The notes under the pieces were generated by a model, which was given only the letters and a program-made list of their open reading frames with translations, was not told where the DNA came from and did not search any database. This document shows, in pieces, positions 3,378-39,360 of a stretch of 64,000 nt of DNA. The DNA is from an uncultured Alphaproteobacteria bacterium. GTDB lineage: Bacteria; Pseudomonadota; Alphaproteobacteria; MPNO01; DASWLB01. The translations under genes were made by a program, and so were the position numbers. How positions within the stretch are numbered: position 1 is the stretch's first letter; each line of letters begins with the position of its first letter. The DNA lies in NCBI GenBank assembly GCA_963822575.1, contig CAWGHZ010000002.1, positions 327,115 to 391,114 of the forward strand, written 5' to 3'.

Positions 3378-6300
3378 TCACCCCAGGGAACTGACATGCA
3401 CGTCCGAAGCATTCAATGCGACATCGCCCGGCGCGTGGCCCTGTAGGCTCGCGACCACGGTGTAACCGGCCGTACTGCCATTGGGATCGAAATACAGCGT
3501 CTGGTCTGCCGTGGAGTAGATGAATGTGGGATCCTGGGCGTCGTAGAAATCGTTAAGCCCGCTCGTCAGCGTCCCATCGTACGCTGTCGTGATTGTCGTG
3601 AAATGGCTGTGCGAATCCATCGAAGTGTCGGTCAGCGTGTGGTCCAAATTGTCGGCATAGACGTTATTGAAACCGGTACTGTTGAAATAGAGGATATCCT
3701 GACCGGTCTGGAAATCGGCAAGTATGTCACCGACATTGGACGGACCGCGCGGCGTGTTCGAGAGAATGAGAGTGCCGTCACCGGGTTGCCCGCTGGCGTT
3801 CGCGAGATTGCCCGCGTCGGTGTACATGAACACGTCGGCGCCGGCCCCGCCCTCGAGCAAATCCGAGCCACCGTTGCCCTGAAGGACATCGTTGCCGTCG
3901 AGGCCGCGCAGCACGTTGTCGCCGGAATTGCCGGTGATCGTGTCATTGAACAGCGAACCGGTCACCCATTCGATGTTCGTCAGCGTGTCGGTGCCGCCGA
4001 ACCCGTCGGACGCGGAGCCGGGGACCGAACTGTCGCCCAGCGTGACCGTGACGCCCTGGCTCATGCCGTCCCGCGCGGTGTCGGAGGCGTAGCTGACCTC
4101 GTCGATGCCGTTGCCGCCGTCGATCGAGTCGTTGCCGCCGCCGCCGAACAGGATGTCGTTGCCGTTCCCACCGAGCAGCGTGTCGTTGCCGCCGCGACCG
4201 ACCAGATTGTCGTCGCCGTCCTCGCCAAGGATGAGGTTGGCGTTGGAATCGCCGAGCAGGACGTCGTTGTTGGCCGAGCCATACAGGTTCTGGATGTTCG
4301 TCAGATAATCGATGAAGCCATAGCCGTCGTCGGTGGCCTGGCCGAGTTGCAGATCGACGCGCACGACACCGGGCGAGTCGAGATAGGCCGCGCCGTTCGT
4401 GCCCCCGCCGCCATCGATGGTGTCTTCGCCGCCGCGGCCGCGGAAGAACTCGTCGGCCGAGCTGCCCATGAACAGGTCGCCCGCGTCCGATCCCCGCACG
4501 CCGACCACGCCCGCGTCGAACATGTCCGTGCCAACGGACGAATCGCCCGTCGCTGTGCCCATGCCGTCGCTGTCGAGCGGCGTGAAATCGACTGTGACCC
4601 CGGAGCTCGCATGCAGAAAATCGAGCCTGGTGACGCCGCTGCCAAAGATGGTGTCGTTGCCGCCACCGCCTTCGAACACATCGTACCCGGCGCTGTTGGC
4701 CGAGTTGAGCCCGGACGACGAGTCGTAGATGTCGTTGCCGTCGGTGCCGATCACCTTCTCGATCGAGCTGACGGTCGACGTGGCGGTCAGAGTGTTGGTG
4801 TCGTCGTACTGGTTGACCGTGCCGCCGTAGCCGTTGACCTCGATGTGGCCGGGCTGGTCCGCGAAGCTCGCGATGTCGAACCCGGTCCCGCCGATCAGCG
4901 TGTCCGACCCGCCGCCCCCGATCAGCGTGTCGATCCCGTCAGTGCCGTCCGGCTGCTGCGGCGAGGAGCCGTCGAGGATGTTGTCGCCGCTGTCGCCGAT
5001 CAGGAGGTCGCCGTAGCCCGAGCCCTGCACGATCTGGATGCCGCTGAACTGGTCGGTGTTACCGAACCCGTCCAGTGCGGTCCCGGTGGCGAGGTTCACC
5101 GTCACGCCCTCGGGTGAGTTGTGATAGGTGATCTCGTTGCCGGAACCGACGCCGGTGAAGGTGTCGCTGCCATGCGTATAGCTGAAGCTTACGCCCGAGC
5201 CCGACCCGTTGAACGTGTCGTCGCCCGCCAGCCCGAAGAACTGGGTATTGCCGTCCACACGTCCGGTGATCGAGTCGGCGAAATCGGTGCCGATCACGCC
5301 GTCGATGTTGAGCAGCGTATCGTTGCCGACCGAGGAATCCCCCGTCGCGGTTCCGTTCGTGCCGTCCCCGAGGTCGACGGTCACGGCGCCCGTGGCGTTC
5401 GCATAGTCGACCTGGTCGTGGGTGCCAGCTGGGTGGGTTCCGCCGTCGATCGTGTCGTTGCCGCCGTTGCCGCGGATGCGGTTGGCCGTGGCGTTGCCGG
5501 TAAGAATGTCGTTGAAGTCGCTGCCTTGCAGGCCGTACAGGCTGGCGAAGCCCTGGATCGTGTCGGTGCCGGCGTACGGGTCGGCGACCGTCAGCCCGCC
5601 ATACCCGTCGCCTGCCGACGACAAGTCGATGTTCAGGCCCGTGAACATCGGGTCGAGGTTGGGATCGAACGCGCCGACCTCTTGGTACGACACCGTCATC
5701 TGCGTCGCGTTCGGTATTGTCGAAATAGTCGTTGCCCGGCCCGCCGACGAAGTACTGCCGGTTTCCCAGGTCACCATCCACCGTCGCGCCGCCGAAGAAC
5801 GTGTCGTCGTTCACGGTGCCGATGACGCGCTCGACGCTGTCGAACAGGTTGTTGGCGCCCTCGGTCGTATCGATGATGATGTTCTGGCCGCTCGTGTGGA
5901 AGTCGACGGTGATCCCGGCGGCCCCGGTCACGCCCGAGTAGCTGACCGTGTCGAATCCGGAATCGCCGTATACGGTGTCATTGCCGCCGCGCGGGGCGAT
6001 GACGTCGTCGCCGCCATTGCCGAAGATGCGGTTGTCATTGTTGTCGCCCTTCAGCGTATCGTTGTAATTCGACCCGGAAATATCGTCAATGTTGCTGAAC
6101 GTGTCGGTGCCGCCGAAGCCGTCGGTCGCGGTGCCCGCTTGGAGGTCGACGGTCACGCCGGCGGGCGCGTTCTTGTAGTTGATCTGGTTGTCGGCCGTGG
6201 CGCTGCCGACGATGCTGTCGTCACCGCCGCCCGGCTGGAACACGTTGAACCCGGTCTGGCTGCCGATCAGCGTGTCGTTGAAGGCCGAACCGCGCGCGCC

Positions 6301-9300
6301 GACGACGTTGAGGAGCGTATCCGTGCCGCCGTACCCGTCAGAAGCCGTGCCGGCGCCGAGGTCGACGGTCACACCCTGGTTGCCTGCGCCGACAGGCGAG
6401 CGGTCGTATCCCGCGATCGTGCCGATCAGCCGCTCGTTGCCCGGGAATTGCGCGCCGATGCCGTAGATCGTGTCGTTGCCGCCCTCGCCGTCGAAGACGT
6501 GCGTGTTGAGCTCGCTGTTGCCAGGCCCGGGCGGGGCGTCGAAGAACGTGTCGGCCTGCGGACTGCCGTAGAAGCGCTCGACGCCGCGCACCACGTCGTG
6601 CTCGGCGCCGCCGGCGTCCATGTAGGAGACCGAGTAGTCCGGCACGCCCGACATTCCGGAGGGCGTGCCCAGCATCCGGACCTCGATGCCGTTCGCGTCG
6701 GTGACGAACGAGTAGTCCACCGTGTCGAACCCGTCGCCGCCGAAGAACGAGTCGCTGCCGGTGCCGTCGCTGCCCATGCCCACGAACGTGTCGTTGCCGT
6801 CGAGCCCGACCAGCTTGTTCGGGTGGGCATTGCCCGTCAGCATGTCGTCGAAGTTCGTGCCGGTCAGGTTCTCGATCGAGATCAGCGTGTCGGTGTCCGC
6901 GCCGATCGTCGCCGTACCGTCGCCGTTGGCATCGAGCGCGACCGTCACCCCGGTCGACGCGTTGCTCCAGCTCACGCTGTCGGTGCCGCTGCCGCCGTCC
7001 AGCGTATCGCTGCCCGCGCCGCCGCCCAGCAGATCGTCGCCCGCGCCGCCCGAGAGCGAATCGTTGCCGTCCTGGCCGAGCAGCCGGTCGTTGCCGTCGC
7101 CGCCGATCAAAGTGTCGTTGCCCGCGCCGCCGGCGAGCCAATCGCTCGCCGCACTGCCGGTCAGGGAGTCGGCTCCCGTTCCGCCCTGGAAGAAGGCGGG
7201 GCCATTGCCCGCGGTGGCGTCGACCGCGACGGCCGACCCGGTCGCATCGACGGCGTCGGGGCCGTCGTTCCCGTTATAGATGAGCGATGAGAGGTCCGTG
7301 CCCGACAGGTCGCCGACGATCACCGAACTTCCGCCGGTGCCGCCGTCGATTTGGGCAACTTCGATGCCAACCAGGCTCACCGTCGCCAGGATTGCGGCGA
7401 TGGTGATCTCGACGGCGAGCTCGGTGCCGCCGGTCGCGGTGAACACGAAGCCGGTTCTCTGCGTCGGATCGGCGGCGAACACGGCCTTGTCCGTGCCGGC
7501 GCCGCCGTGGATCTCGTCGCTACCGCCGCCACCGACGATCGTATCGTTGCCGGACCCACCATAAATCAGGTCGCGTAACGCGCCGCCCACCAGCATGTCG
7601 CCCGCGGAATCGCCGACGATCAGATTGTTCGCGGCATTGTCGCCGACGAATCCCTGCTGGACCGTGTAGGTGATGCCGGCCCCATTGTTGAAATTGGGGT
7701 CGAAGCCGAATTCGATCGGATCGCCCGCGAACTCGTTCTGAACGACGATCGAGCCGCCATCCGACAGGGTAAGGGTAAGATCGCTTCCGCCGGTGCCGGT
7801 GCGCGCAACACCCGTCACGTCGCCATTCTGGTCGTCGATACTGAGCGTGTCCATGCCGCCGAGAATCGAGGATCGTGTCGTTCCCGTCGCCGAACGTGTA
7901 GCTGTAGAAGTCGTCGCCGGCCCCGCCCTGGAGCGTGTCGTTGCCGCCCCCGCCGACCAGCGAGTCGTCGCCGGCCCCGCCGAGAAGTGTGTCCTCACCG
8001 CTTCCGCCGATCAGCGTATCGTTGCCGTCATTGCCGGATGCGTTGATCTGGACGTCCGTGCCGGATGCGTCGACGGAATCGTTCCCGACGCCGCCGCTGA
8101 AGACCAGCGTGGTGAGCTGGGCCGATGTCACATTGAAGAGATCGACCCCATCGCCGGCGTCGCCCGCGACGATCCCGAGCACCTCGGTATTGTCGATTTC
8201 GGGGAAGTAGAAGCTGGTGGCGCCTTCCGCGGCGAGTGTCAGCATCCCGCCATAGCCGTCGACGGTGAACAGGCTCGTGCCGGCCCCCGTCACGCCGGTG
8301 ACGTTCAGCGAGTTCGATCCCGTCGCCGCCGTCGATGAGCGAAGGGCTGCCGTCGCCCGGGTGCCATTCGAACCGGTCGTTGCCGAGCCCGCCGAGGAGC
8401 GTGTCGGTGCCGGTTCCGGCATAGAGCGTGTCGTCTCCGTCCCCGCCGTCGAGCATGTCGGCGCCGCTCCCGGCGTGGAGCTGGTCGTCGCCGAACCCAC
8501 CAGAAACCGTCGTTCCGCCGCTGGCGCTATCGTTGCCGACATAGACGATGTCGTCGCCGTCCATTGCATCGATGGAGTTGCCCGATCCGTCGCCGACGAT
8601 GAAATCGTCGGCCGAACTGCCGGTCAGGCCCTGGACGATGGCGTAGGTGGTGCCGCCGGTGACGTCGACCAGGCTCTCGAGCGCGCCGCCCATCCCGTCG
8701 AACTGGCTCACGATATCGACGGAGTTGGAGGCGTCGAAGGTAAGGGTGAGGTCGAGCCCGTTCGTGCCGGTGCGTGCGGCCGTCAGGCCCGCGAAGTCCG
8801 GCACGGTGACCTGGAGCTGATCGGTGCCCGAGGAATTGCCGATCTGGTCGTTGCCGTCGCCCAGGGCGAACACGTAGGTGTCGTTGCCGTCGCCGCCCGA
8901 GAGCGCATCGTTGCCGCCCCCGCCGGCAAGCACGTTGTCGCCGCCGTTTCCGATGATCAGGTTGTTGAGGGCGTTGCCGGTGCCGTTGATGTTGGCGTTG
9001 CCGCCGAGCTGCAGGATCTCGACGTTGTCGGGCAAGGTGAGGCTGATCGAGGTCGTGATCGAATCCTGCGTGCCCTCGCCGGGGTTCTCGATCACCACAT
9101 CGCCCGGATCGTCGACCGTGTAGGCATCGTCGCCGGTCCCGCCCGCCATCGTATCGGCGCCCGCGCCGCCGTCGATCACGTCGTTTCCGGCCCCGCCCAC
9201 GATCGAGTCGTTGCCGGACCCGCCCATGAGCGTGTCGGCTCCCCCGCCGCCGAGCAGCGTGTCGTTGCCGGACTGGCCGTCGGCGCTGACGGCGCAGTTC

Positions 9301-12300
9301 GTCGCCGAGGCGTCGAGCAGATCGTTGCCCGCGCCGAGCGAGGCGATCACCTGTGTCACGCTTGTTTCGCTGAGCGCACCGATGGTCAGCACATCGTTGC
9401 CGGCCCCGCCGAGAATCTGGATGTTCTCGACATTGGTGACGTCGATAAATTCCGTGCCGACCGTGACGGTCACTTCCGAGCCGCCGGGCGAAACGGTGAT
9501 GCTATCGCCCGCCGCATCGCCATTGATCACCAGAAAATCGCTGCCGGACCCGCCGTCGATCGTGTCGTTGCCATCGCCGACCGACCAGAAGATGCTGTCG
9601 TTGTTGTCGCCGCCGGAAACGCTGTCGTTGCCCGTGCCTCCGGTCAGAGTGTCGCTGCCGGTGCCGCCGTCGAGCGTGTCGTTGCCGGCACTGCCGAACA
9701 ACGAATCGTTGCCGTCGCCGCCCAGAACCATGTCATTCCCGGCGGCACCGTCGAGCGTGTCGTTTCCGCTGCCACCGCTGAGCGTATCGTCGCCCGTGCC
9801 GCCGAACAGGGAGTCGGTGCCCGCATTGCCCACGAGCGAATTGTTCCCCGTGCCGCCATCGAGCGTATCGTTGCCGCTCGCGCCGAGAAGGGTGTCGTTG
9901 CCGTCGAGCCCGAACAGCATCTCGTTGCCCGCACTCGACGACACGCCGGACGTGCCGCCGACCGTGAAGGTCGAGCCCCGGATCTGGAACACGAACTGCC
10001 CGGGCAGGCCGTCATTCGTACCGAGAATGAGGGGGGCGGTGCCGGTGTCGGCGAAGGTGCCCGTCATGAGCGAGCCGGGAAGCTCGTAGAAGTTTCCCAT
10101 CGCGCCGGCGCCGTCGGAGAAGCCGACGACGGGCCCCGCCGAATAGTCCCACTGGATCTGGGAGTAGTTGAAGTAGATGTCGAAATCGCCCGTGCCGACG
10201 TCGGAGCGGTCGACCAGGACGACCTGGAACGTGTTGAGGAGGTCGGTCCCGCTCGGGAACCGTCCGACGTCGTTCCAGGTGGCGGCGAACGCGGCATGAC
10301 CGGCAAAAGTGCCGGTGCCATAGGTGACTGTGCCCGCGGCGGTCGTGTCGACGTCGGCGAAGTAGGGGGCGATGATCTTTTGCCCCAATGTCGCCAGGCT
10401 GGTCGAATAGTACGCCGTATAGGAGTTGCCGAATGTCAGATAGCCGTTGTTGTCGACAAAGACGTCACTATAGTTGGTGCCGAAGTAATTGACCGTGAAG
10501 CCGAGCGAGGCCTGTGCGACGGGAAAATCGTCCCCTGTTGGCAGCGTCCCCAAGGTGAATCCCGGCGCAACCGTCCCACCCGACACGGTGATCAGGTTGT
10601 CGCTCGCATTCCCGACCCCGGTGAGGTTGTCCGAGCCGGTGAGGACCAGGTTCTCGACGTTCGCGGGCAGGGTGTAGCTGATGCTGCTGCGGACGGTGTC
10701 GGTGCCCCCATTGGCGTTCTCGATCACCACGTCGGCCGCATTATCGACCACAAAGGTGTCGTTGCCGGTCCCGCCGACCATCGTGTCGGCGCCGGATCCG
10801 CCATCGATCGTGTCGTTGCCGTCGCCGCCAGTCAGCGAGTCGCCCGCGGTGCCGCCGATCAGCGAGTCGTTGCCGGCTCCGCCGTCGGCGACGATGCGCA
10901 CGTTCGAGCTCGCGCCATTCACCGTGTCGTCGCCGGCGTTGCCGTTGGCGATGATCGTGCTCTGGGAAATGCCGGTGTTGGTGAGGTTTCCGACCGTCAG
11001 GAGGTCGTTGCCGGAGCCGCCATTGAACGTGACTTCCTCGATCGCGCTGATGTTGATCGTGGCGGATTGGCCGAAGTTGACGTTGGGCGAGCTTACGGCG
11101 ATCAGCGCGTGCCCGGCGTTTGCGCCGGTGCCGGCCGTGATGGCTGCCGTGTCGCCGAAATTGTCTCCGGTAATGGTCAGCCGATCGTTGCCGGCGGTTC
11201 CGACGAAGGTGTGGTTGCCGTCGGCCACGTTCCAGTTAAAGGTTTGATTGGTCGGGGGCTGCTGCTGTTGTTGTTGCTGTTGCTGCTGCTGCGCCGAGGA
11301 GCCGGACGTCCCCGTCCCGGTGCCGGTTCCTGTCCCGGTGCCCATCCCGGTCCCGGTGCCGCCGCCGGTTCCGCCGCCGGTTCCGCCGCCGGTTCCGCCG
11401 CCCGTGTTCGTCGTCGCGGGCGGCGGCGGGGGAGGGGGAGGGGGCGGCGGGGGAGGGGGCGGGGGCGGCGGGGGCGGCGCCGCATTCTGCGTCTGGTCCG
11501 GTCCCTGGCCGCTGGGCGGCGTGTTGTCGCCGCCCTGCTGACCGTTCTCGCCGCCCTGGCCGCCTTGCCCGCCTTGCTGGCCCTGGTTCTGCTGCTGCTG
11601 TTGGCCCTGCTCCTGCCGGCCCTGGTTCACGCTGAACGGCGCAAGCTGGTGCGACAGGGCCTGCGCCGCACCGAACAGGCTCTGCTGCTGGGTCGGCGGC
11701 AGGATGAAGGGCTGCGCCGGCGAGCTGGAGAGGCCGGTCGAGGTCGTCGACAGGCCCGGCGCGTTCAGCAGCACCGAGCCGACGGAGGTGGTGATCGCGA
11801 TCGCGCCCGAGATCAAGGTGAAGGTCGACTCGCCGCCGATACTGGCGATCTGGCAGGCGAACTCTGTGCCGCGAATGCCGATCGAGGCGACCGGCGTGTT
11901 GATGTGCACCGAGTCGTGGTTCGCCTTGCCGATCTCGCCCGTCACCGCCACGAACACGCCCTGCAGCAGCGAGAAGCTCGCCGAGCCCGAATGCGTGTCC
12001 GGGTTGTAGATGAGCTGGTCGAGCACCATCCGGGCGTGATCGGCCAGCGCGAAGGTCGACTTGTCGACGAACACGATGCCGACCTTGGCGCCGTCGCCAG
12101 TCTGCAGCACGTCGCCCTGATAGACCGGCGCGTTCTGCGACAGGGTGGTGGTGGTGCCGTCGGTATGGCGCGCCGTCACCTGACCCGTGATCGACTGCAC
12201 GTGGCCGATGGGTTGGGCGCCGCCCGGACCGGCGGGGCCGGCCTGGGCGTACTGGCCGGGGGCAATCGGCCCGGCCAGGCGGGCCGCCAGCGCGCCCGGG

Positions 12301-21463: not shown

Positions 21464-22453
21464 GTGGCGGAGAACGATCCGGCGGCGCCCGCGCCCGCGC
21501 CCGTGGCGCACGGCATCGCACTCGCGGCCGGTATGCTCACGCTTTCGGCCCTGTTCTGGGCGGGAAGCGCGGTTACCGGCCGGATGGCCGCGGGCGCGAT
21601 CCCGCCGGTCGCGCTGTCGTTCTGGCGCTGGGTGCTGGCCTTCGCTTTGTTCGCGGCTCTCGGCGCGCCCGCCTTTTGGCGCGAGCGGCGCGCCATCGCC
21701 GCCGCGTGGCGGCCGCTCCTGATCCTGTCGCTCACCGGAATCGCCGGCTTCTCCATCCTGTTCTTCGAGGGGCTGCAATATTCGACCGCGATCAACGCGT
21801 CCCTGTTCGACGCGCTCGGGCCGATGCTGACGCTGGCGCTCGCTTCCGTTGTGCTGCGCACCCCCGCCACGCTCAGCGAGATCGCGGGCGTCGTGCTGGG
21901 CATCGCGGGGGCGGCGACCATCATCTTCCGCGGGCGCGTCGGGGCGTTGCTCGCGCTGCAGGTGAATGTCGGCGACGTGTTCCTGGTCGCCGCGATGGCG
22001 GTCTGGGCTGTCTACACAGTCGCGCTCCGGCGTTATCCGGTCCGGCTCGATTCGCGCGTGGTGATGGCCGTGCTGTCCGGCGTCGGCTGCGTGATCCTCT
22101 TGCCGCTCTATTTACGGGAGCTCGCGCAGGGGCAGAATTTCGCCCTGACCGCGGAGAATATCGGGATCATCGTCTATGCCGGCATCTTTGCCTCGGCGCT
22201 CGCCTATTTGTGCTGGAACAGGGGCGTTGCCGTGGTCGGCCCCGCCAAAGCGGCGCTCGCGCAGTACCTCGTGCCGGTCTTCGGCGTCGTGCTCGCCATC
22301 GTCACGCTGGGCGAGAGGCTGGAATGGTTCCACGTGGCGGGGATGGCGCTGATCTTTGGTGGGATCGGCATGGCGACGATCCCCCGGCGCAACCGTTCCC
22401 GGTCGGGAAACGGAGCGGCGAAGGTCGAAGGACGGCAAAACCCATTGTCGTGA
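21464..22453 (+). CDS. EamA/DMT-superfamily transporter (10 predicted TM helices); start uncertain (GTG 21464 or ATG 21533)
   Basis: Two internally similar hydrophobic halves typical of EamA domains. It lies downstream of the MetE-like paralog. Confidence 0.65.
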   Translation: MAENDPAAPAPAPVAHGIALAAGMLTLSALFWAGSAVTGRMAAGAIPPVALSFWRWVLAFALFAALGAPAFWRERRAIAAAWRPLLILSLTGIAGFSILFFEGLQYSTAINASLFDALGPMLTLALASVVLRTPATLSEIAGVVLGIAGAATIIFRGRVGALLALQVNVGDVFLVAAMAVWAVYTVALRRYPVRLDSRVVMAVLSGVGCVILLPLYLRELAQGQNFALTAENIGIIVYAGIFASALAYLCWNRGVAVVGPAKAALAQYLVPVFGVVLAIVTLGERLEWFHVAGMALIFGGIGMATIPRRNRSRSGNGAAKVEGRQNPLS

Positions 22454-22523
22454 AGGCCGCGCGCACGGCGTGTTCGGCCGCGCGGGCGCATGCGATAGTC
22501 GCGCCTCCACAGGAGGAGCCACC

Positions 22524-23528
22524 ATGTTTTCCAGGAGAACGGCCGCCCTTGCGGTGGCCCTTGTCGCATGCGCGTTCGCCGCCACCCCCGCGCGCGCGGC
22601 GATGGAGAAGACCTCCATCGCCATGCCGGTGATCAGCGTCACCTTCGCCCCTGTCTATGTCGCGCTCGACAAGGGGATGTGGAAGGCGCACGACCTCGAC
22701 GTCACCCTGCATGACATTTCGGGCCTCGGCGCGACCAACGCCATGCTGGCCGGCAGCGTCGATTTCGCCGTCGCGTCCGGCCCGACGCTCATCCGGGCCA
22801 ACATCCGCGGCCAGAAGATCCTGGGGCTCGGGCTGATCGCCAACGGGCTCGCCTTCGACGTGATGATGAGCCGGAAGGCCGCAGAGGCGGCGCACCTCGC
22901 GCCCGAGATGACGCTCGCCGACCGGGTGAAGGCGCTGAAGGGCGCGAAGGTCTCGGTCGACGCGCCGAACACCATCGTCCAGGCCTTCCTGCGCTATGTC
23001 GCGCGCAAGGGCGGCGTGGATCCGGAGCGCGATTTCGTGACCACTCCGATGGCGCCGCCGGCGGCGCTCGCCGCGCTCGGCGCGGGCGCAACGCAGGCCG
23101 CCACCTTCACCTCGCCCTGGCAGTTCATCTCGATGTCGCGCGGCGATTTCAACCTGGCGAGCGGCGTGACCGACGTGCCCGAGCTTCTGCCCTTCGCGTC
23201 GACGGTCACGATCACCCGGCCCGTCGTGTGCGAGAAGAAGCCGACGATCTGCCGGAAGCTGATGGCGGGCTATATCGAGGCGCACAAATACGTGCACGAC
23301 CACCCGGCCGAGACGCTGGCGGTGCTGCAGGCGCGCATGCCGCGCTCCAACCCCGCCGAGCTCAAGCAGGCCTACGAGCGGATGGCGCGCACGACGCCGA
23401 TGACGCCCGAATTCTCGACCGAAGGGCTGATGCACGCGCAGGAGCTGATGGTGACGGGCGGCATGATCAAGCCCGCGGAGAAGCTCGTCTCGTTCGATGC
23501 CATCTACACGAACAAGTTTTTGAAGTAG
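22524..23528 (+). CDS. ABC-transporter periplasmic substrate-binding protein, NMT1/SsuA/TauA-like, 334 aa, with signal peptide
   Basis: AGGAGGA RBS upstream. N-terminal signal peptide (AALAVALVACAFAATPARA) followed by an NMT1-like fold. No cognate permease or ATPase is adjacent. Confidence 0.65.
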   Translation: MFSRRTAALAVALVACAFAATPARAAMEKTSIAMPVISVTFAPVYVALDKGMWKAHDLDVTLHDISGLGATNAMLAGSVDFAVASGPTLIRANIRGQKILGLGLIANGLAFDVMMSRKAAEAAHLAPEMTLADRVKALKGAKVSVDAPNTIVQAFLRYVARKGGVDPERDFVTTPMAPPAALAALGAGATQAATFTSPWQFISMSRGDFNLASGVTDVPELLPFASTVTITRPVVCEKKPTICRKLMAGYIEAHKYVHDHPAETLAVLQARMPRSNPAELKQAYERMARTTPMTPEFSTEGLMHAQELMVTGGMIKPAEKLVSFDAIYTNKFLK

Positions 23529-23532
23529 GCGT

Positions 23533-23569
23533 AGAAAAAGTGGGCGCCAAGCCGGTTCAGGCGCCCACT
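23533..23569 (-). terminator. Rho-independent terminator for the minus-strand transcript (10-bp perfect stem, 11-nt loop, then TTTTTCT)
   Basis: The minus strand reads agtgggcgcc-tgaaccggctt-ggcgcccact-TTTTTCTAC. It lies just downstream of the fused dehydrogenase ORF and inside the low-GC island. Confidence 0.5.
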
Positions 23570-23780
23570 CCCTCGCTTAAGCGTTCATTGTACTCACGCA
23601 ACCGAGCCCCAATTTCGTCGGGCAGATCGTTCATCTTGAAATAGGTGGCGGTTGGCGTCGCAGCCCAAAGGAACGACAGGCAAGCTGCATCTAACGTGTC
23701 GCGCAAATTAGAAGTATCGCGCTCTCCACTTATCCCTACTACGCTGCCGTCAATGATTTTGGCGTGCCGATTTAAAGCGT

Positions 23781-25229
23781 TTACGCTACGTGCGCGCCAT
23801 CTCCAGAAAGATAACGAAACAACAAGGTGTACAGCTGTTTATATTGGTTCATTGCAAGTCGCTCGAAATTTATACGATTGAGTTTCCCTCCCGCTTGGCT
23901 AATATTTCTGGCGACCTCCTCTAGAAGCCGAATTGTTTCCTTCGGGAAGGCGGCCTTTAGCTCCCGGTCGTTGAGAACGGCATTGGCAGCCTTAAGCTTG
24001 TGCGCTTGATCATCTTCAACCAAGGCATCTATAAACTTTTCATCCGAAGTGGCGGCACCCAGTGCTATCGCGCTTTCGACGCAAAGGCGCGAAATCGCCC
24101 GAGCCTCTCCAACGAATGCCTGTTCCAGCAGCAAGATTGTCGCTTCTAGAGCGCTCAGGGCATGCATAAACAACAGCTGTATCAAAAAGGATCGGCGATC
24201 TGGCTCTATTGGGAACCTTGCTACCATTGTATGCCCTAGGTGCACAAAGCTATCGGCGAAGCCGAACCAACGCGCAAATTGCGCATCTGCTCGCGGCTGC
24301 GGAGTTGTTGCGCCTGCACGCTCCTTCGCCCGGGAGCGGGCGAGCTGGACGAGCTGGTCGTTGACGCGCTTGCGCACCGCGGCGGCGGTCTCGGGGGTCC
24401 ATTCGTAGAACCCCTTGCCCGTGGACATGCCGAGCTCGCCCTTCTCGACCATTTCGACCAGCAGCGGGCTCGGCTCGGTCGAGCGGTCGAGCGCCGGGCA
24501 CATGGTGCGCTGGACATCGAGCGTGATGTTGACGCCGATCAGGTCGGACTGCTCCATCGGGCCGAGGATGCCGAGGCGCGCGCCGAACCCGTCCTTCACC
24601 ACGATGTCGAGCGTCTCGGCGTCGCAGATGCCAGCGGCGACGATGGCGATGGCCTCGCGCTTCATCGCATGTTGCAGCCGGTTGCCGATGAAGCCCGGCA
24701 CGTCGCGCTTCACGTGCACCGGCGACTTGCCGCAGGCGGCGAGCATCGCGATGGTCTTCTCGACGGTCGCAAGCGACGTGCGCTCGGCCTGCACCACCTC
24801 GACCAGCGGGATCAGATGCGGCGGGTTCCAGAAATGCGTGCCCACCACGCGGTCGGCCGTCGCCACCTTCTCGCCGATCCGGGTGATCGGGAGCGCCGAG
24901 GTGTTTGATGCGAGGATGCAGTCGCGCTTCGTCGTCTTCTCCAGCCGAGCGAAGATCTCCTGCTTCAGCGGCAGCTTCTCGGGTGCCGCTTCGATCACCA
25001 TGTCGGCGTCGCCGACGGCCTTGTCGAAGTCGGGTTCCAAGGTGACGTTGGCCGCGCCCGCCGGGTCCTGCCCCAACAGCGCGAAGATCGCACGAATGCG
25101 CTCCGGCGCGGTCTTCAGCACATCCGCGCCGGTGTCGTAGAGCGCGACCTTGTGGCCGCCGGCCGCGAAGATCTGCGCGATGCCGTGGCCCATCAGCCCC
25201 GCGCCGAGAACGGCGATGCGTTCGTTCAT
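23781..25229 (-). CDS. 3-hydroxyacyl-CoA (3-hydroxybutyryl-CoA) dehydrogenase family protein fused to a 165-aa C-terminal helical extension encoded by a low-GC (~49%) island
   Basis: N-terminal Rossmann motif VLGAGLMGHGIAQ and an HBD C-terminal domain through ~residue 317. The ORF then continues another 165 aa (FARWFGFADSFVHLGHTMVARFPIEPD...LSGDGAHVA). GC drops sharply exactly at ~24280-24300. Confidence 0.7.
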   Translation of the reverse strand: MNERIAVLGAGLMGHGIAQIFAAGGHKVALYDTGADVLKTAPERIRAIFALLGQDPAGAANVTLEPDFDKAVGDADMVIEAAPEKLPLKQEIFARLEKTTKRDCILASNTSALPITRIGEKVATADRVVGTHFWNPPHLIPLVEVVQAERTSLATVEKTIAMLAACGKSPVHVKRDVPGFIGNRLQHAMKREAIAIVAAGICDAETLDIVVKDGFGARLGILGPMEQSDLIGVNITLDVQRTMCPALDRSTEPSPLLVEMVEKGELGMSTGKGFYEWTPETAAAVRKRVNDQLVQLARSRAKERAGATTPQPRADAQFARWFGFADSFVHLGHTMVARFPIEPDRRSFLIQLLFMHALSALEATILLLEQAFVGEARAISRLCVESAIALGAATSDEKFIDALVEDDQAHKLKAANAVLNDRELKAAFPKETIRLLEEVARNISQAGGKLNRINFERLAMNQYKQLYTLLFRYLSGDGAHVA

Positions 25230-26067: not shown

Positions 26068-26409
26068 TCATTTCTCCGGCGCGGGCATGACGACCAGCAT
26101 GGTCGCCACCCGGTTGGTTCTGTTCACGATCTGGCGCTCCTCGCCGGGCGGGATGTGGCAGGAATCGAGCGGGCCGAGCACGGTGTCCTTGCCCGCGATC
26201 GTCACCGTCACTTCGCCGTCGATGACGACGTAGACGCGCTCCAGGGGCGATGCGCTGTTCTCCGCGCCGCCGCCCGGCAGGAAGTAGGAGAGCCCGACCG
26301 TCACCTTCTTGGTCGGCGACGCCTCCAGCCCCTGCAGGCGGAGCGCCGTCATGTCCCAGTGGCGCGCCGCCTCGTAGGGCTTGGCGCCGGCGATGCGGGT
26401 GACGTCCAT
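26068..26409 (-). CDS. Small cupin-domain protein, 113 aa
   Basis: Intact ORF abutting neighbours on both sides (operonic). Cupin-like GxxxHxH...E/P...G pattern. Confidence 0.55.
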   Translation of the reverse strand: MDVTRIAGAKPYEAARHWDMTALRLQGLEASPTKKVTVGLSYFLPGGGAENSASPLERVYVVIDGEVTVTIAGKDTVLGPLDSCHIPPGEERQIVNRTNRVATMLVVMPAPEK

Positions 26410-26410
26410 C

Positions 26411-27292
26411 TCAGCTCTCCCCGGTCTCGATGCGGTACTTGCCCTTCGGGTCGACGATCGCGACCACGCGCACGCCGCACCCCTCGCCCTCCGGCCAGTT
26501 CCACGGGAACGCCATGAAGGTGCAGCGCTTGCCGGTCACCTTGTCGATCTCGCCGCCGATGTTCTCGATGCCGGGGATGCCGTTGGTCATCATGATCTTG
26601 TGCGCCGGCTCCCACAGCGGGAAGTCGTCGGCGATGTGGCGCCTGGTCATCGCGTAGTACTCGGCGTCGAGGTGCGGCTGCGCCGGACCGGGCCCGTGCG
26701 GGCCCAGGAACGTGCCGAGCGGGTGGTCGAGCGCCTGCACGTCGACGCCGACGAGCTTCACCTTGTGCGCGACGATCCACTCCGCCGCGTCCTTGTACAG
26801 CCCGGGCGAGTAGGCGAAGTAGTCCGGGTTGTCGCCCCACTTGCGGTGCGAGCCGGTGTTGATCATCACGATGTCGTTGGGCTGGATCTTCGGCCGCGCC
26901 CTCTCCAGATCGTCGGCCGTGATGACGCCCCACTTACCCTTGGGGATCGACACCGCGACGCCGGTGCCGAAGAAGCGCCACATGTCGTACTGGGTGATGG
27001 TCGGCTGGTTCTCCAGCACGTGGATCGGCGCGTCCATGTGCGTGCCGCGGTGCATGATGCCCTCGAACTGCTGCACGAAGACGCCGTCCTTGGCGTGGAA
27101 CATCAGCGTCTTGGTCGCCAGGTTCGAGCGCGACGGCCATTGCGGCATGCCGTGGCCCCAGCGGTGCGACAGCTCGTAGAACTCGAGATCGGCGGTGGAG
27201 GAGGGCGCGCGGCCGGCGCGGGCGGCGGGCCGGCTCGCCTGCAGCGCGCGGGCGCGCGCGGGCTTCTTCTTCGCGGTCTTGGTGACGGCCAT
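26411..27292 (-). CDS. Putative cyclase/arylformamidase-family protein (kynurenine formamidase KynB-like), paralog A, ~293 aa
   Basis: Family signature HRGTHMDAPIH (HxGTHxDAPxH). The true ATG at 27292 was chosen over the upstream Arg-rich out-of-frame readthrough. Confidence 0.7.
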   Translation of the reverse strand: MAVTKTAKKKPARARALQASRPAARAGRAPSSTADLEFYELSHRWGHGMPQWPSRSNLATKTLMFHAKDGVFVQQFEGIMHRGTHMDAPIHVLENQPTITQYDMWRFFGTGVAVSIPKGKWGVITADDLERARPKIQPNDIVMINTGSHRKWGDNPDYFAYSPGLYKDAAEWIVAHKVKLVGVDVQALDHPLGTFLGPHGPGPAQPHLDAEYYAMTRRHIADDFPLWEPAHKIMMTNGIPGIENIGGEIDKVTGKRCTFMAFPWNWPEGEGCGVRVVAIVDPKGKYRIETGES

Positions 27293-27294
27293 GA

Positions 27295-28104
27295 CTATCT
27301 CCGCTTGCCGGTTTCGACGCGGTACTCGCCCGAGGGGTCGCAGATCGCGACCAGCCGGACCACGCAGGCGTCGCCCTCGAACCAGCGCCACGGGTAGGCG
27401 TGGAAGGTCAGGCGCTTGCCCGTCACCTCGTCCACGTCGCCCCCGACGTTCTCGATGGTGGGGATGCCGGCCGCCAGCAGCGTCTTGTGCGCGACGTTCC
27501 ACTCCGGGAAGTCCTTCAGCGCGTCGCGCCCGGTGGCCTTCTTGTATTCGGGCGCGATCTTCTTGATTTGCGGCCCGTTGCGGTGCGGCCCGAACGAGGT
27601 GGCGAGCGGATGGTCGATCTCGGCCGTGTCGACGCCCACCAGCTTGACCTTGCGCTTGACCAGCCATTCGGCCGCGTCCTTGGTCATGCCCGGCGCGTAG
27701 CCGAAATATTCCTGGCTGTCCGAGTATTTGTGATGCCAGCCGGTATTGATCAGCACGATGTCGCCCGGCCGGATCGCGGGCTTCGCCGCCTGCAGGTCCT
27801 TTGCGGTGATCTTCTCCCACTTGCCCTTGGGCAGGTCGACCACGACGCCCGAGCCGAAGAACCGCTCGGCCGCCAATTCGCCGATGCCCTGGGCCATCGG
27901 CACCAGGTGGATCGGCGCGTTGGCATGGGTCGAGCAGTGGAAGATGGTGACCACCTTGGACGTCATCACGCCGTGCTTGGCGTGATAGGTGAACCGCTCG
28001 ATCTTGACGTCCTCGTAGCCGGGATAGGTCGGGATGTTGTAGCCCCAGGGCTGGCTGAGGTCATAGAACTCGAGCCCGGTGCCGGGCTCGATGATCGCTG
28101 GCAT
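27295..28104 (-). CDS. Putative cyclase/arylformamidase-family protein, paralog B, ~269 aa
   Basis: Motif HCSTHANAPIH. Overall similarity to the 26411..27292 paralog (FYDLSQPWGYNIP / FYELSHRWGHGMP). Confidence 0.7.
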   Translation of the reverse strand: MPAIIEPGTGLEFYDLSQPWGYNIPTYPGYEDVKIERFTYHAKHGVMTSKVVTIFHCSTHANAPIHLVPMAQGIGELAAERFFGSGVVVDLPKGKWEKITAKDLQAAKPAIRPGDIVLINTGWHHKYSDSQEYFGYAPGMTKDAAEWLVKRKVKLVGVDTAEIDHPLATSFGPHRNGPQIKKIAPEYKKATGRDALKDFPEWNVAHKTLLAAGIPTIENVGGDVDEVTGKRLTFHAYPWRWFEGDACVVRLVAICDPSGEYRVETGKRR

Positions 28105-38402: not shown

Positions 38403-38855
38403 TTACGCCTCGGCGCGGGCGCGCCGGCCGGGGCGCTGGCCGGGCTTGCGGCCGAGGCCGATTTTCTTCGCGAAATCAGAGCGCTGTGCGGCGTAGTTCG
38501 GAGCGACCATCGGGTAGTCGGGCGGCAGGCTCCACTTGGCCCGGTACTCGTCCGGCGACATTCCGTAGGCGGCGCGCAAATGGCGCTTCAGCATCTTGAG
38601 CTTCTTGCCGTCCTCGAGGCAGACGAGATATTCGGGCGTGACCGACCGGCGCACCGGCACGGCAGGCTTCAGCGGCTCGGACGCGGCGACGGGGCCATCG
38701 CCGCTATAGGTCCGGAGCGACGCGAACACGGTTCCGATGACTTCGGAAATCTGGCCGGGGGGCAGAGGATTGTTGCTGACATAGGCGGCGACGATATTCA
38801 CTGCCATACGCAGGACTTCACCGGACTCGATTGCTTTCTCGGGCTGGTCGACCAT
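38403..38855 (-). CDS. mucR: MucR/Ros-family zinc-finger transcriptional regulator, 150 aa
   Basis: Classic Ros/MucR core YLVCLEDGKKLKMLKRHLRAAYGMSPDEYRAKWSLPPDYPMVAPNYA. ATG at 38855. Confidence 0.85.
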   Translation of the reverse strand: MVDQPEKAIESGEVLRMAVNIVAAYVSNNPLPPGQISEVIGTVFASLRTYSGDGPVAASEPLKPAVPVRRSVTPEYLVCLEDGKKLKMLKRHLRAAYGMSPDEYRAKWSLPPDYPMVAPNYAAQRSDFAKKIGLGRKPGQRPGRRARAEA

Positions 38856-39360
38856 CCCTGGTCCCTTTCCTGTTTTTGTGGAGCGCGGACTGATTGCACG
38901 CGGAAAGTCGCTTGTCAACATCGATCAAGAATTGATTCGGTAAATATGTGGCGAATAACCGCAAACACGCCGCCTTGAATTGCGGCTTTTTGCCGCGCCA
39001 CAGTATGCGAGGTGCAGGCGCTTGTGTGCGTTTGATGAAAATCGCAAAAGCGGACCGTAATCCGTATGCCGGAAAGCGATCAGGCCATAATCCCAGCATA
39101 AATGTTCTATAAACATCGTGCCTGTGATTTGGCCAGGGCGCGAATCCTTGTGCGCGTCCGGCGAACCCTGCGCGGCGCGCCGCCGCCCTCGGACCCGGCG
39201 CCGCCTCGCGAGCCGTAGTGGGATGCTGGAATGCGTTCCGCCATATATGGTAAGTTCCGCCCGATTCGGGTTCCCACAGAACGCGCGCGCCCGCATTGGG
39301 CCGGGCAGGCCTCGGTTCGCCGCGCGCGAACGCTTGAAATGCTGGAAAGGTAAGGGATCG

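Follow-up and report, generated by a model that had tools for sequence, protein, structure and literature searches.

A probable remnant of an acquired DUF5677 gene joined in frame to a 3-hydroxyacyl-CoA dehydrogenase gene in an uncultured alphaproteobacterium

Deletions that join a host gene to an acquired gene create chimeric open reading frames (ORFs), and such events are general in the formation of bacterial pseudogenes and gene remnants. Here, we describe a locus of this kind in a 64,000-nucleotide (nt) stretch of DNA, referred to as the window, from an uncultured Alphaproteobacteria bacterium (GenBank assembly GCA_963822575.1, contig CAWGHZ010000002.1, positions 327,115 to 391,114 of the forward strand). 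In the window, a gene for a 3-hydroxyacyl-CoA dehydrogenase (HBD) on the minus strand reads straight on into a 789-bp island of low GC content, and the island is probably what is left, in a state of decay, of one DUF5677 family gene that was acquired horizontally and became joined in frame to the HBD gene by chance. The foreign composition, the truncation of both partners, an extra frameshift and the absence from sister genomes are as in chimeric ORFs in general; the locus differs from them by the in-frame joint, which gives rise to a long hybrid ORF. This ORF (23781–25229, minus strand; all positions are those of the window) comprises 482 residues, i.e., HBD residues 1 to 304, a linker of 8 residues and a DUF5677 fragment at residues 313 to 481, and it ends at a TAA generated by the frameshift.

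Two groups of described proteins come close to this hybrid. DUF5677 proteins stand alone or, occasionally, have a helix-turn-helix (HTH) domain at the N-terminus. Once the two frames of the window copy are joined, it is colinear with the stand-alone proteins over its length and has the invariant residues R, E, Y, S, and H and a predicted all-helical secondary structure in common with them; by contrast, it is frameshifted, lacks a start and is fused to an enzyme gene. HBDs with a native C-terminal extension (NCBIfam PRK08268, PaaH; ∼505 residues) are similar in total length to the window ORF and have the same two N-terminal domains; however, their extension is a host-encoded second 3HCDH domain, while the extension in the window is DUF5677 at foreign GC. 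A native long-form HBD is ruled out, as the long models matched over their first ∼300 positions only.

A dehydrogenase gene that reads into a low-GC island

The HBD part of the hybrid ORF (residues 1 to 304; 24318–25229, minus strand) contains 3HCDH_N (PF02737; residues 5 to 175, 181.8 bits) and 3HCDH (PF00725; residues 179 to 277, 75.1 bits), both with cut-offs of 22, and it is without the native last two to four codons and the stop. Among the NCBIfam equivalogs for HBDs (e.g., FHMPC dehydrogenase, PaaH, and Hbd), the best model, NF042925, scored 239 bits and, thus, below its cut-off of 500; the substrate cannot be assigned from these equivalog scores. A scan of species-representative genomes gave 80 HBD loci. 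At 72 of the 80 loci, the orthologue terminates at a position that corresponds to residues 299 to 323, and the window ORF runs to residue 482. Eight orthologues with apparently long C-termini were not used; at least four of these are artefacts of tblastn, with stops inside the alignment, and two look like frameshifted bins. DUF5677 was not found within 10 kb of the HBD gene at any of the 80 loci.

Two of the genomes, L001 (CAWFOW010000001) and L002 (CAWGXN010000001), are sister long-read metagenome-assembled genomes (MAGs) of uncultured Alphaproteobacteria that are 87 to 89% identical to the window at the DNA level, with synteny extending for ∼10 kb on each side. They have in common with the window an operon of cyclase-like, cupin, SDR, and HBD genes and, downstream of it, the same convergent gene for a periplasmic ATP-binding cassette (ABC) substrate-binding protein (22356–23528, plus strand; judged by synteny and sequence). 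Their HBD proteins are 91% identical to window residues 2 to 304 and end two to four codons beyond the equivalent of residue 304, with ...RSRAKGRPTEG and ...RARAKGRKN directly before the stop. The window HBD, in contrast, has no stop there and continues for 178 codons. In the sisters, a palindrome-rich spacer of 255 or 201 bp separates the HBD stop from that of the convergent ABC gene. Nucleotide alignments with the window lose homology at 24318/24317 and regain it at 23528, i.e., at the stop codon of the ABC gene, where the island has its right-hand border; the entire intervening segment (23529–24317, without strand assignment) is missing from both relatives.

The composition of this segment sets it apart from the rest of the window. 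The island has a GC content of ∼0.52 with a core of 0.47 to 0.49, and the mean of the 64 kb is 0.688. The profile falls from ∼0.69 to between 0.47 and 0.54 from roughly 23400 to 24300, windows of 200 to 300 nt reach 0.47 to 0.49 at 23600–23900, and in windows of 300 nt the island has the lowest GC of the entire 64 kb (z down to −4.6). GC at third codon positions (GC3) is 0.53 in the tail, compared to 0.91 in the HBD part and 0.83 to 0.94 in other host genes. Judged by its absence from both syntenic relatives and by a GC3 of 0.53 in a genome at ∼0.9, the island DNA is foreign, and the acquisition appears to be recent because GC3 is unameliorated.

These results bear on an initial annotation of the window, which had described a low-GC island read through in frame by the HBD ORF, had proposed that foreign DNA may have inserted into or replaced the 3' end of the HBD gene or that the native stop may have been lost, and had pointed to the HBD locus of close relatives as a means to check this. 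The island and the read-through are confirmed (GC 0.523 over 23530–24300; an ORF of 482 residues), and the comparison with L001 and L002 bears out that foreign DNA took the place of the 3' end and the spacer of the HBD gene, with loss of the native stop. By contrast, the boundary has to be moved: HBD had been thought complete by about residue 317 with a tail of 165 residues, whereas homology with the orthologous genes stops at residue 304 (nt 24318) and the non-HBD tail is 178 residues long. Within this tail, 169 residues align to DUF5677 homologues, and eight residues, AGATTPQP, do not. This junction segment (24294–24317, minus strand; 24 nt, GC 71%) resembles neither the 3' end of the relatives' HBD genes nor DUF5677. 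It could represent filler DNA or, alternatively, the C-terminus native to HBD in this lineage, from which the stop has been lost.

In the sister genomes, palindromic elements that resemble repetitive extragenic palindromes (REP) and translate like "LSLSKDE" are found in the spacers around HBD (L001, 10930–11030 and ∼9900–9990; L002, 10930–11060); at both of these sites, the window is free of them. REP-like repeats of this kind may have been a recombination-prone target at which the foreign DNA entered.

Identity and condition of the acquired gene

The tail belongs to Pfam family PF18928, DUF5677 (E = 1.9e-12; 48.0 bits with the full ORF and 51.5 bits with the tail alone, at a cut-off of 27.1). 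Only positions 4 to 149 of the 166 in the profile are covered and, therefore, the ORF stops within the domain. Three-frame translation showed that coding sequence proceeds past the stop in the −1 frame, as SVNALNRHAKIIDGS...SEGVGA, up to a TGA at 23559–23557; from this translation and the ORF list, the single DUF5677 frame is the only reading frame inside the island. The nearest homologue, P0001, is a stand-alone protein of 305 residues from the Logan assembly SRR16630534 with 51% identity over 240 residues; scans of JGI metagenome contigs (two) and IMG/VR (one) gave no close relative of the window copy. The 5' part of the gene (23784–24293, minus strand), which is in the HBD frame, aligns to P0001 residues 61 to 229, and the 3' part (23557–23787, minus strand) comprises 76 codons (SVNALNRH...SEGVGA) and the TGA; it is shifted to the −1 frame with respect to the fused ORF and matches P0001 residues 230 to 300 colinearly. 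Colinearity holds across the frame change, with ...YLSGDGAHV in the first frame and SVNALNRHA in the second corresponding to ...YLSGDGVHVNVNVLNRHA in P0001. When the joined sequence was searched against the window with tblastn, it matched in two pieces, 24293–23784 and 23787–23560, which are in different frames and overlap at 23784–23787; therefore, one nucleotide is missing at 23788/23787. The missing base, which is two thirds along the gene, belongs to a Val codon (CAC GT_ AGC; 23787–23788, minus strand), where homologues read HV(S/N)V/L, and its loss yields the TAA at 23783–23781. Programmed frameshifting was considered and rejected, as the sequence CAC GTA GCG TAA offers neither a slippery heptamer nor a stimulatory context.

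The gene is also damaged at its 5' end. An alignment of 45 family members opens with MxFxxxGFLSxxxxxWxxxxRxxxxxWFxLAD, and the window copy starts at the R of this motif, with homology from family position ∼21. It is without ∼20 N-terminal residues, the start codon and the GFL columns, which are 98% conserved in the family, and has HBD sequence upstream instead. Because residue ∼3 to 6 of family members aligns to profile position 5 to 8, the window copy is truncated N-terminally. Moreover, with a family hidden Markov model (HMM) built without the window copy and P0001, the joined window sequence scored 209 bits, compared to 251 bits for the equivalent span of P0001, and the window copy departs from consensus at three near-invariant sites at which P0001 conforms; together, the lower score and the three departures are mild evidence for relaxed constraint.

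If the frameshift were a sequencing or assembly error, the real product would be an HBD-DUF5677 chimera of ∼557 residues that has all of the domain except its first ∼20 residues; this newly formed fusion protein may be tolerated or even functional. The closest relatives are long-read bins, both halves of the DUF5677 sequence are well conserved with all strictly invariant residues kept, and in L002 the SDR gene upstream of HBD (9145–10125) is split into two overlapping ORFs of 326 and 217 residues, probably by a long-read indel error, which bears on the trust to be placed in single-base frameshifts of these assemblies. However, the missing base is outside any long homopolymer (CACGT_AGC) and the other genes of the window appear as long, intact ORFs. 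The N-terminal truncation and the loss of GFL would persist regardless, and HBD-DUF5677 fusions are absent from the best 150 family representatives and from the 80 HBD loci. We regard a sequence error as unlikely. That such an error is combined with a stable hybrid of ∼557 residues made by the cell, i.e., a very young natural domain fusion, is very unlikely; if true, this hybrid could serve to probe what DUF5677 does.

The acquired gene brought its own intrinsic terminator (23533–23569, minus strand), with a perfect GC-rich stem of 10 bp (arms 23569–23560 and 23548–23539), a loop of 11 nt in which the TGA stop sits, and the tract TTTTTCT. The hairpin folds at −27.7 kcal/mol (z = −3.7), a value not reached by any of 200 shuffled sequences. 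A consensus scanner overlooked this terminator because its loop limit is 3 to 8 nt. An Rfam scan of the window gave no match. Two further proposals of the initial annotation stand, namely that the tail is real protein-coding sequence on the minus strand and that the island ends with its own perfect rho-independent terminator. Its tail without a recognizable family, by contrast, is DUF5677, and what it had taken for a possible accessory module is not an intact one; it is one gene that has lost ∼20 N-terminal codons together with its start and is split by a 1-nt frameshift.

An island assembled by mistake, with foreign reads spliced into the contig, would be in line with the abrupt change in composition, and there is no conspecific sequence for a cross-check. 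For such a chimera, however, two wrong junctions would have to lie within just 789 bp, both with an exact return to host sequence in synteny, and the segment is a single coherent gene that has its terminator and is placed naturally between two genes. We consider this explanation exceedingly improbable.

A proposed history and its consequences

We suggest that DNA with a DUF5677 gene and its terminator landed in the repeat-rich convergent spacer between the HBD gene and the ABC substrate-binding gene, and that this would have occurred after the split from L001 and L002. Subsequently, a deletion, or the illegitimate recombination itself, would have fused the last HBD codons to DUF5677 codon ∼20 to 21, with a chance of one in three that the joint is in frame. 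The tail is free of stops because the HBD ORF runs through the native DUF5677 frame. Then, or at the same time, the deletion of one nucleotide would have broken this frame, giving the TAA at which the hybrid ORF now ends.

To relate the tail to a fold, we used an AlphaFold (AF2) model of P0001 generated from the 45-sequence alignment. The model is all-helical, with a mean pLDDT (predicted local distance difference test) of 87.4 and a core above 95. The translated tail corresponds to helices 64 to 227 of this model, and because the first helix, a small beta-hairpin and both of the long helices at the end are missing, the tail is predicted to be an incomplete domain; in the model, these missing parts are components of the helical core. 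HBD is probably made with a helical, incomplete-domain appendage of 178 residues; this appendage is probably poorly folded, and the DUF5677 part is most likely non-functional. The operon transcript likely now ends at the imported terminator. The case is one of ordinary genome decay and neither a new system nor a new kind of protein tail.

Several points weigh against a decaying remnant. First, the window copy retains all the strictly invariant residues R, E, Y, S, and H. Second, the copy is young and its composition unameliorated, and inactivation cannot be demonstrated by sequence alone. Third, the frameshift depends on one missing base in a single assembly, and with an error at this base the gene would be less decayed than proposed here. 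Fourth, exact-sequence searches with the fused ORF and the adjacent SDR gave no match, and no conspecific sequence was found that shows an intact precursor or an island-free allele. Finally, there is nothing to explain the arrival of the DNA: the island has no ORF for a recombinase, integrase or transposase, the 64-kb window has no tRNA, and a search of the island ends for target-site duplications, flanking direct repeats and terminal inverted repeats gave just chance-level repeats of 9 to 10 nt. With these points taken into account, we still consider the remnant of a single acquired gene, joined in frame by chance, the probable explanation.

The locus calls for caution in annotation. A pipeline would call a "bifunctional" dehydrogenase of 482 residues, in which the extra domain is a truncated and frameshifted foreign remnant. 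It also provides a clean and datable example of how a deletion beside acquired DNA makes a hybrid ORF and of how an imported terminator may come to end a host operon.

The DUF5677 family and minor features of the window

An exhaustive profile search among cluster representatives at 50% identity recovered 1848 DUF5677 clusters at E ≤ 0.001 and 929 at E ≤ 1e-10. A word-indexed protein search had given two and then eight homologues, and the family was seen through the exhaustive HMM search. Members are almost all free-standing proteins, typically of 260 to 280 residues (∼265); a few long members have N-terminal HTH domains, and fusions to HBD or another dehydrogenase are absent among the best 150 of the 1848 representatives. 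A structure search of the kind that the initial annotation had advised, carried out with Foldseek on the P0001 model, did not reveal a match in PDB or BFVD at E < 0.1. When PDB sequences were searched with a profile, the matches were confined to designed helical repeats (E > 0.003). The conservation of the five invariant polar residues (R, E, Y, S, and H) suggests that they are a candidate active or binding site. The open biology lies in this large family itself, with its confident but unmatched helical fold, and the damaged window copy is ill suited for its study.

Elsewhere, DUF5677 genes adjoin a phage-type integrase and HicB, DUF433, or a RES-Xre toxin-antitoxin pair on a Paraburkholderia plasmid, and others stand alone between housekeeping genes; these contexts are accessory genome. 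Matches to DUF5677 were found in three of 72,556 plasmids and in none of 50,697 phage records. The tail had no match in PADLOC-DB, in which full-length homologues were marginal (E > 0.003), none in PHROGs below an E of 0.08, and none among NCBIfam models. The two adjacent small genes of a toxin-antitoxin system are absent from the island, and there is no partner gene in it. A preprint (PMC12632615) describes DUF5677 as enriched beside serine recombinases in Bacillota; one such ORF was tested, and the five ORFs listed as lowering phage plaquing do not include it. The defence- or addiction-type module suggested by the initial annotation did not gain from any of these searches, and a role of DUF5677 in defence or addiction is a lead without support.

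These contexts also bear on the idea that the DUF5677 fragment is expressed alone, from an internal start that overlaps the HBD tail, and has an accessory role, e.g., in defence or addiction. An ATG at 24228 and a GTG at ∼24243 are in frame, a weak AGGG lies 6 nt upstream of the ATG, and the accessory contexts and the enrichment beside serine recombinases (PMC12632615) are compatible with such a role. However, both codons are downstream of the conserved RxxxxxWFxLAD helix, so that the Met at 24228, which the initial annotation had named as a possible internal start, is not the native start, and with the frameshift, the product would be without the last 76 residues. Moreover, the PADLOC and PHROGs searches, the island without a partner gene and the tested ORF of PMC12632615, which was not one of the protective ones, all speak against it. 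Separate expression of the fragment is, thus, highly improbable.

Some observations concern other genes. In a Solirubrobacteraceae MAG (L079, 10001–11371), an HBD frame runs on for ∼158 codons into cupin-like sequence, and this extension may be a true fusion or result from a frameshift. Upstream of the cupin-SDR-HBD genes of the window, the adjacent segments 26408–26978 and 27269–27865 on the minus strand give BLAST cross-hits in L001 and L002, where each matches the counterpart of the other at 70 to 72% identity, which suggests tandem paralogous genes; an ORF of 469 residues at 26411–27820 probably over-extends the downstream copy of the pair. A second low-GC patch (38403–39100; 0.53 to 0.56) covers the upstream region and the start of an ORF of 172 residues that by eye resembles a Ros/MucR-type zinc-finger regulator, and this patch is probably an ordinary AT-rich promoter region. 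Finally, an ORF of 799 residues at 3378–5777 on the minus strand is rich in GGxGxD-like glycine/aspartate repeats and looks like an RTX-type secreted protein; at its 3' end (3401–3700), GC goes down to 0.55.

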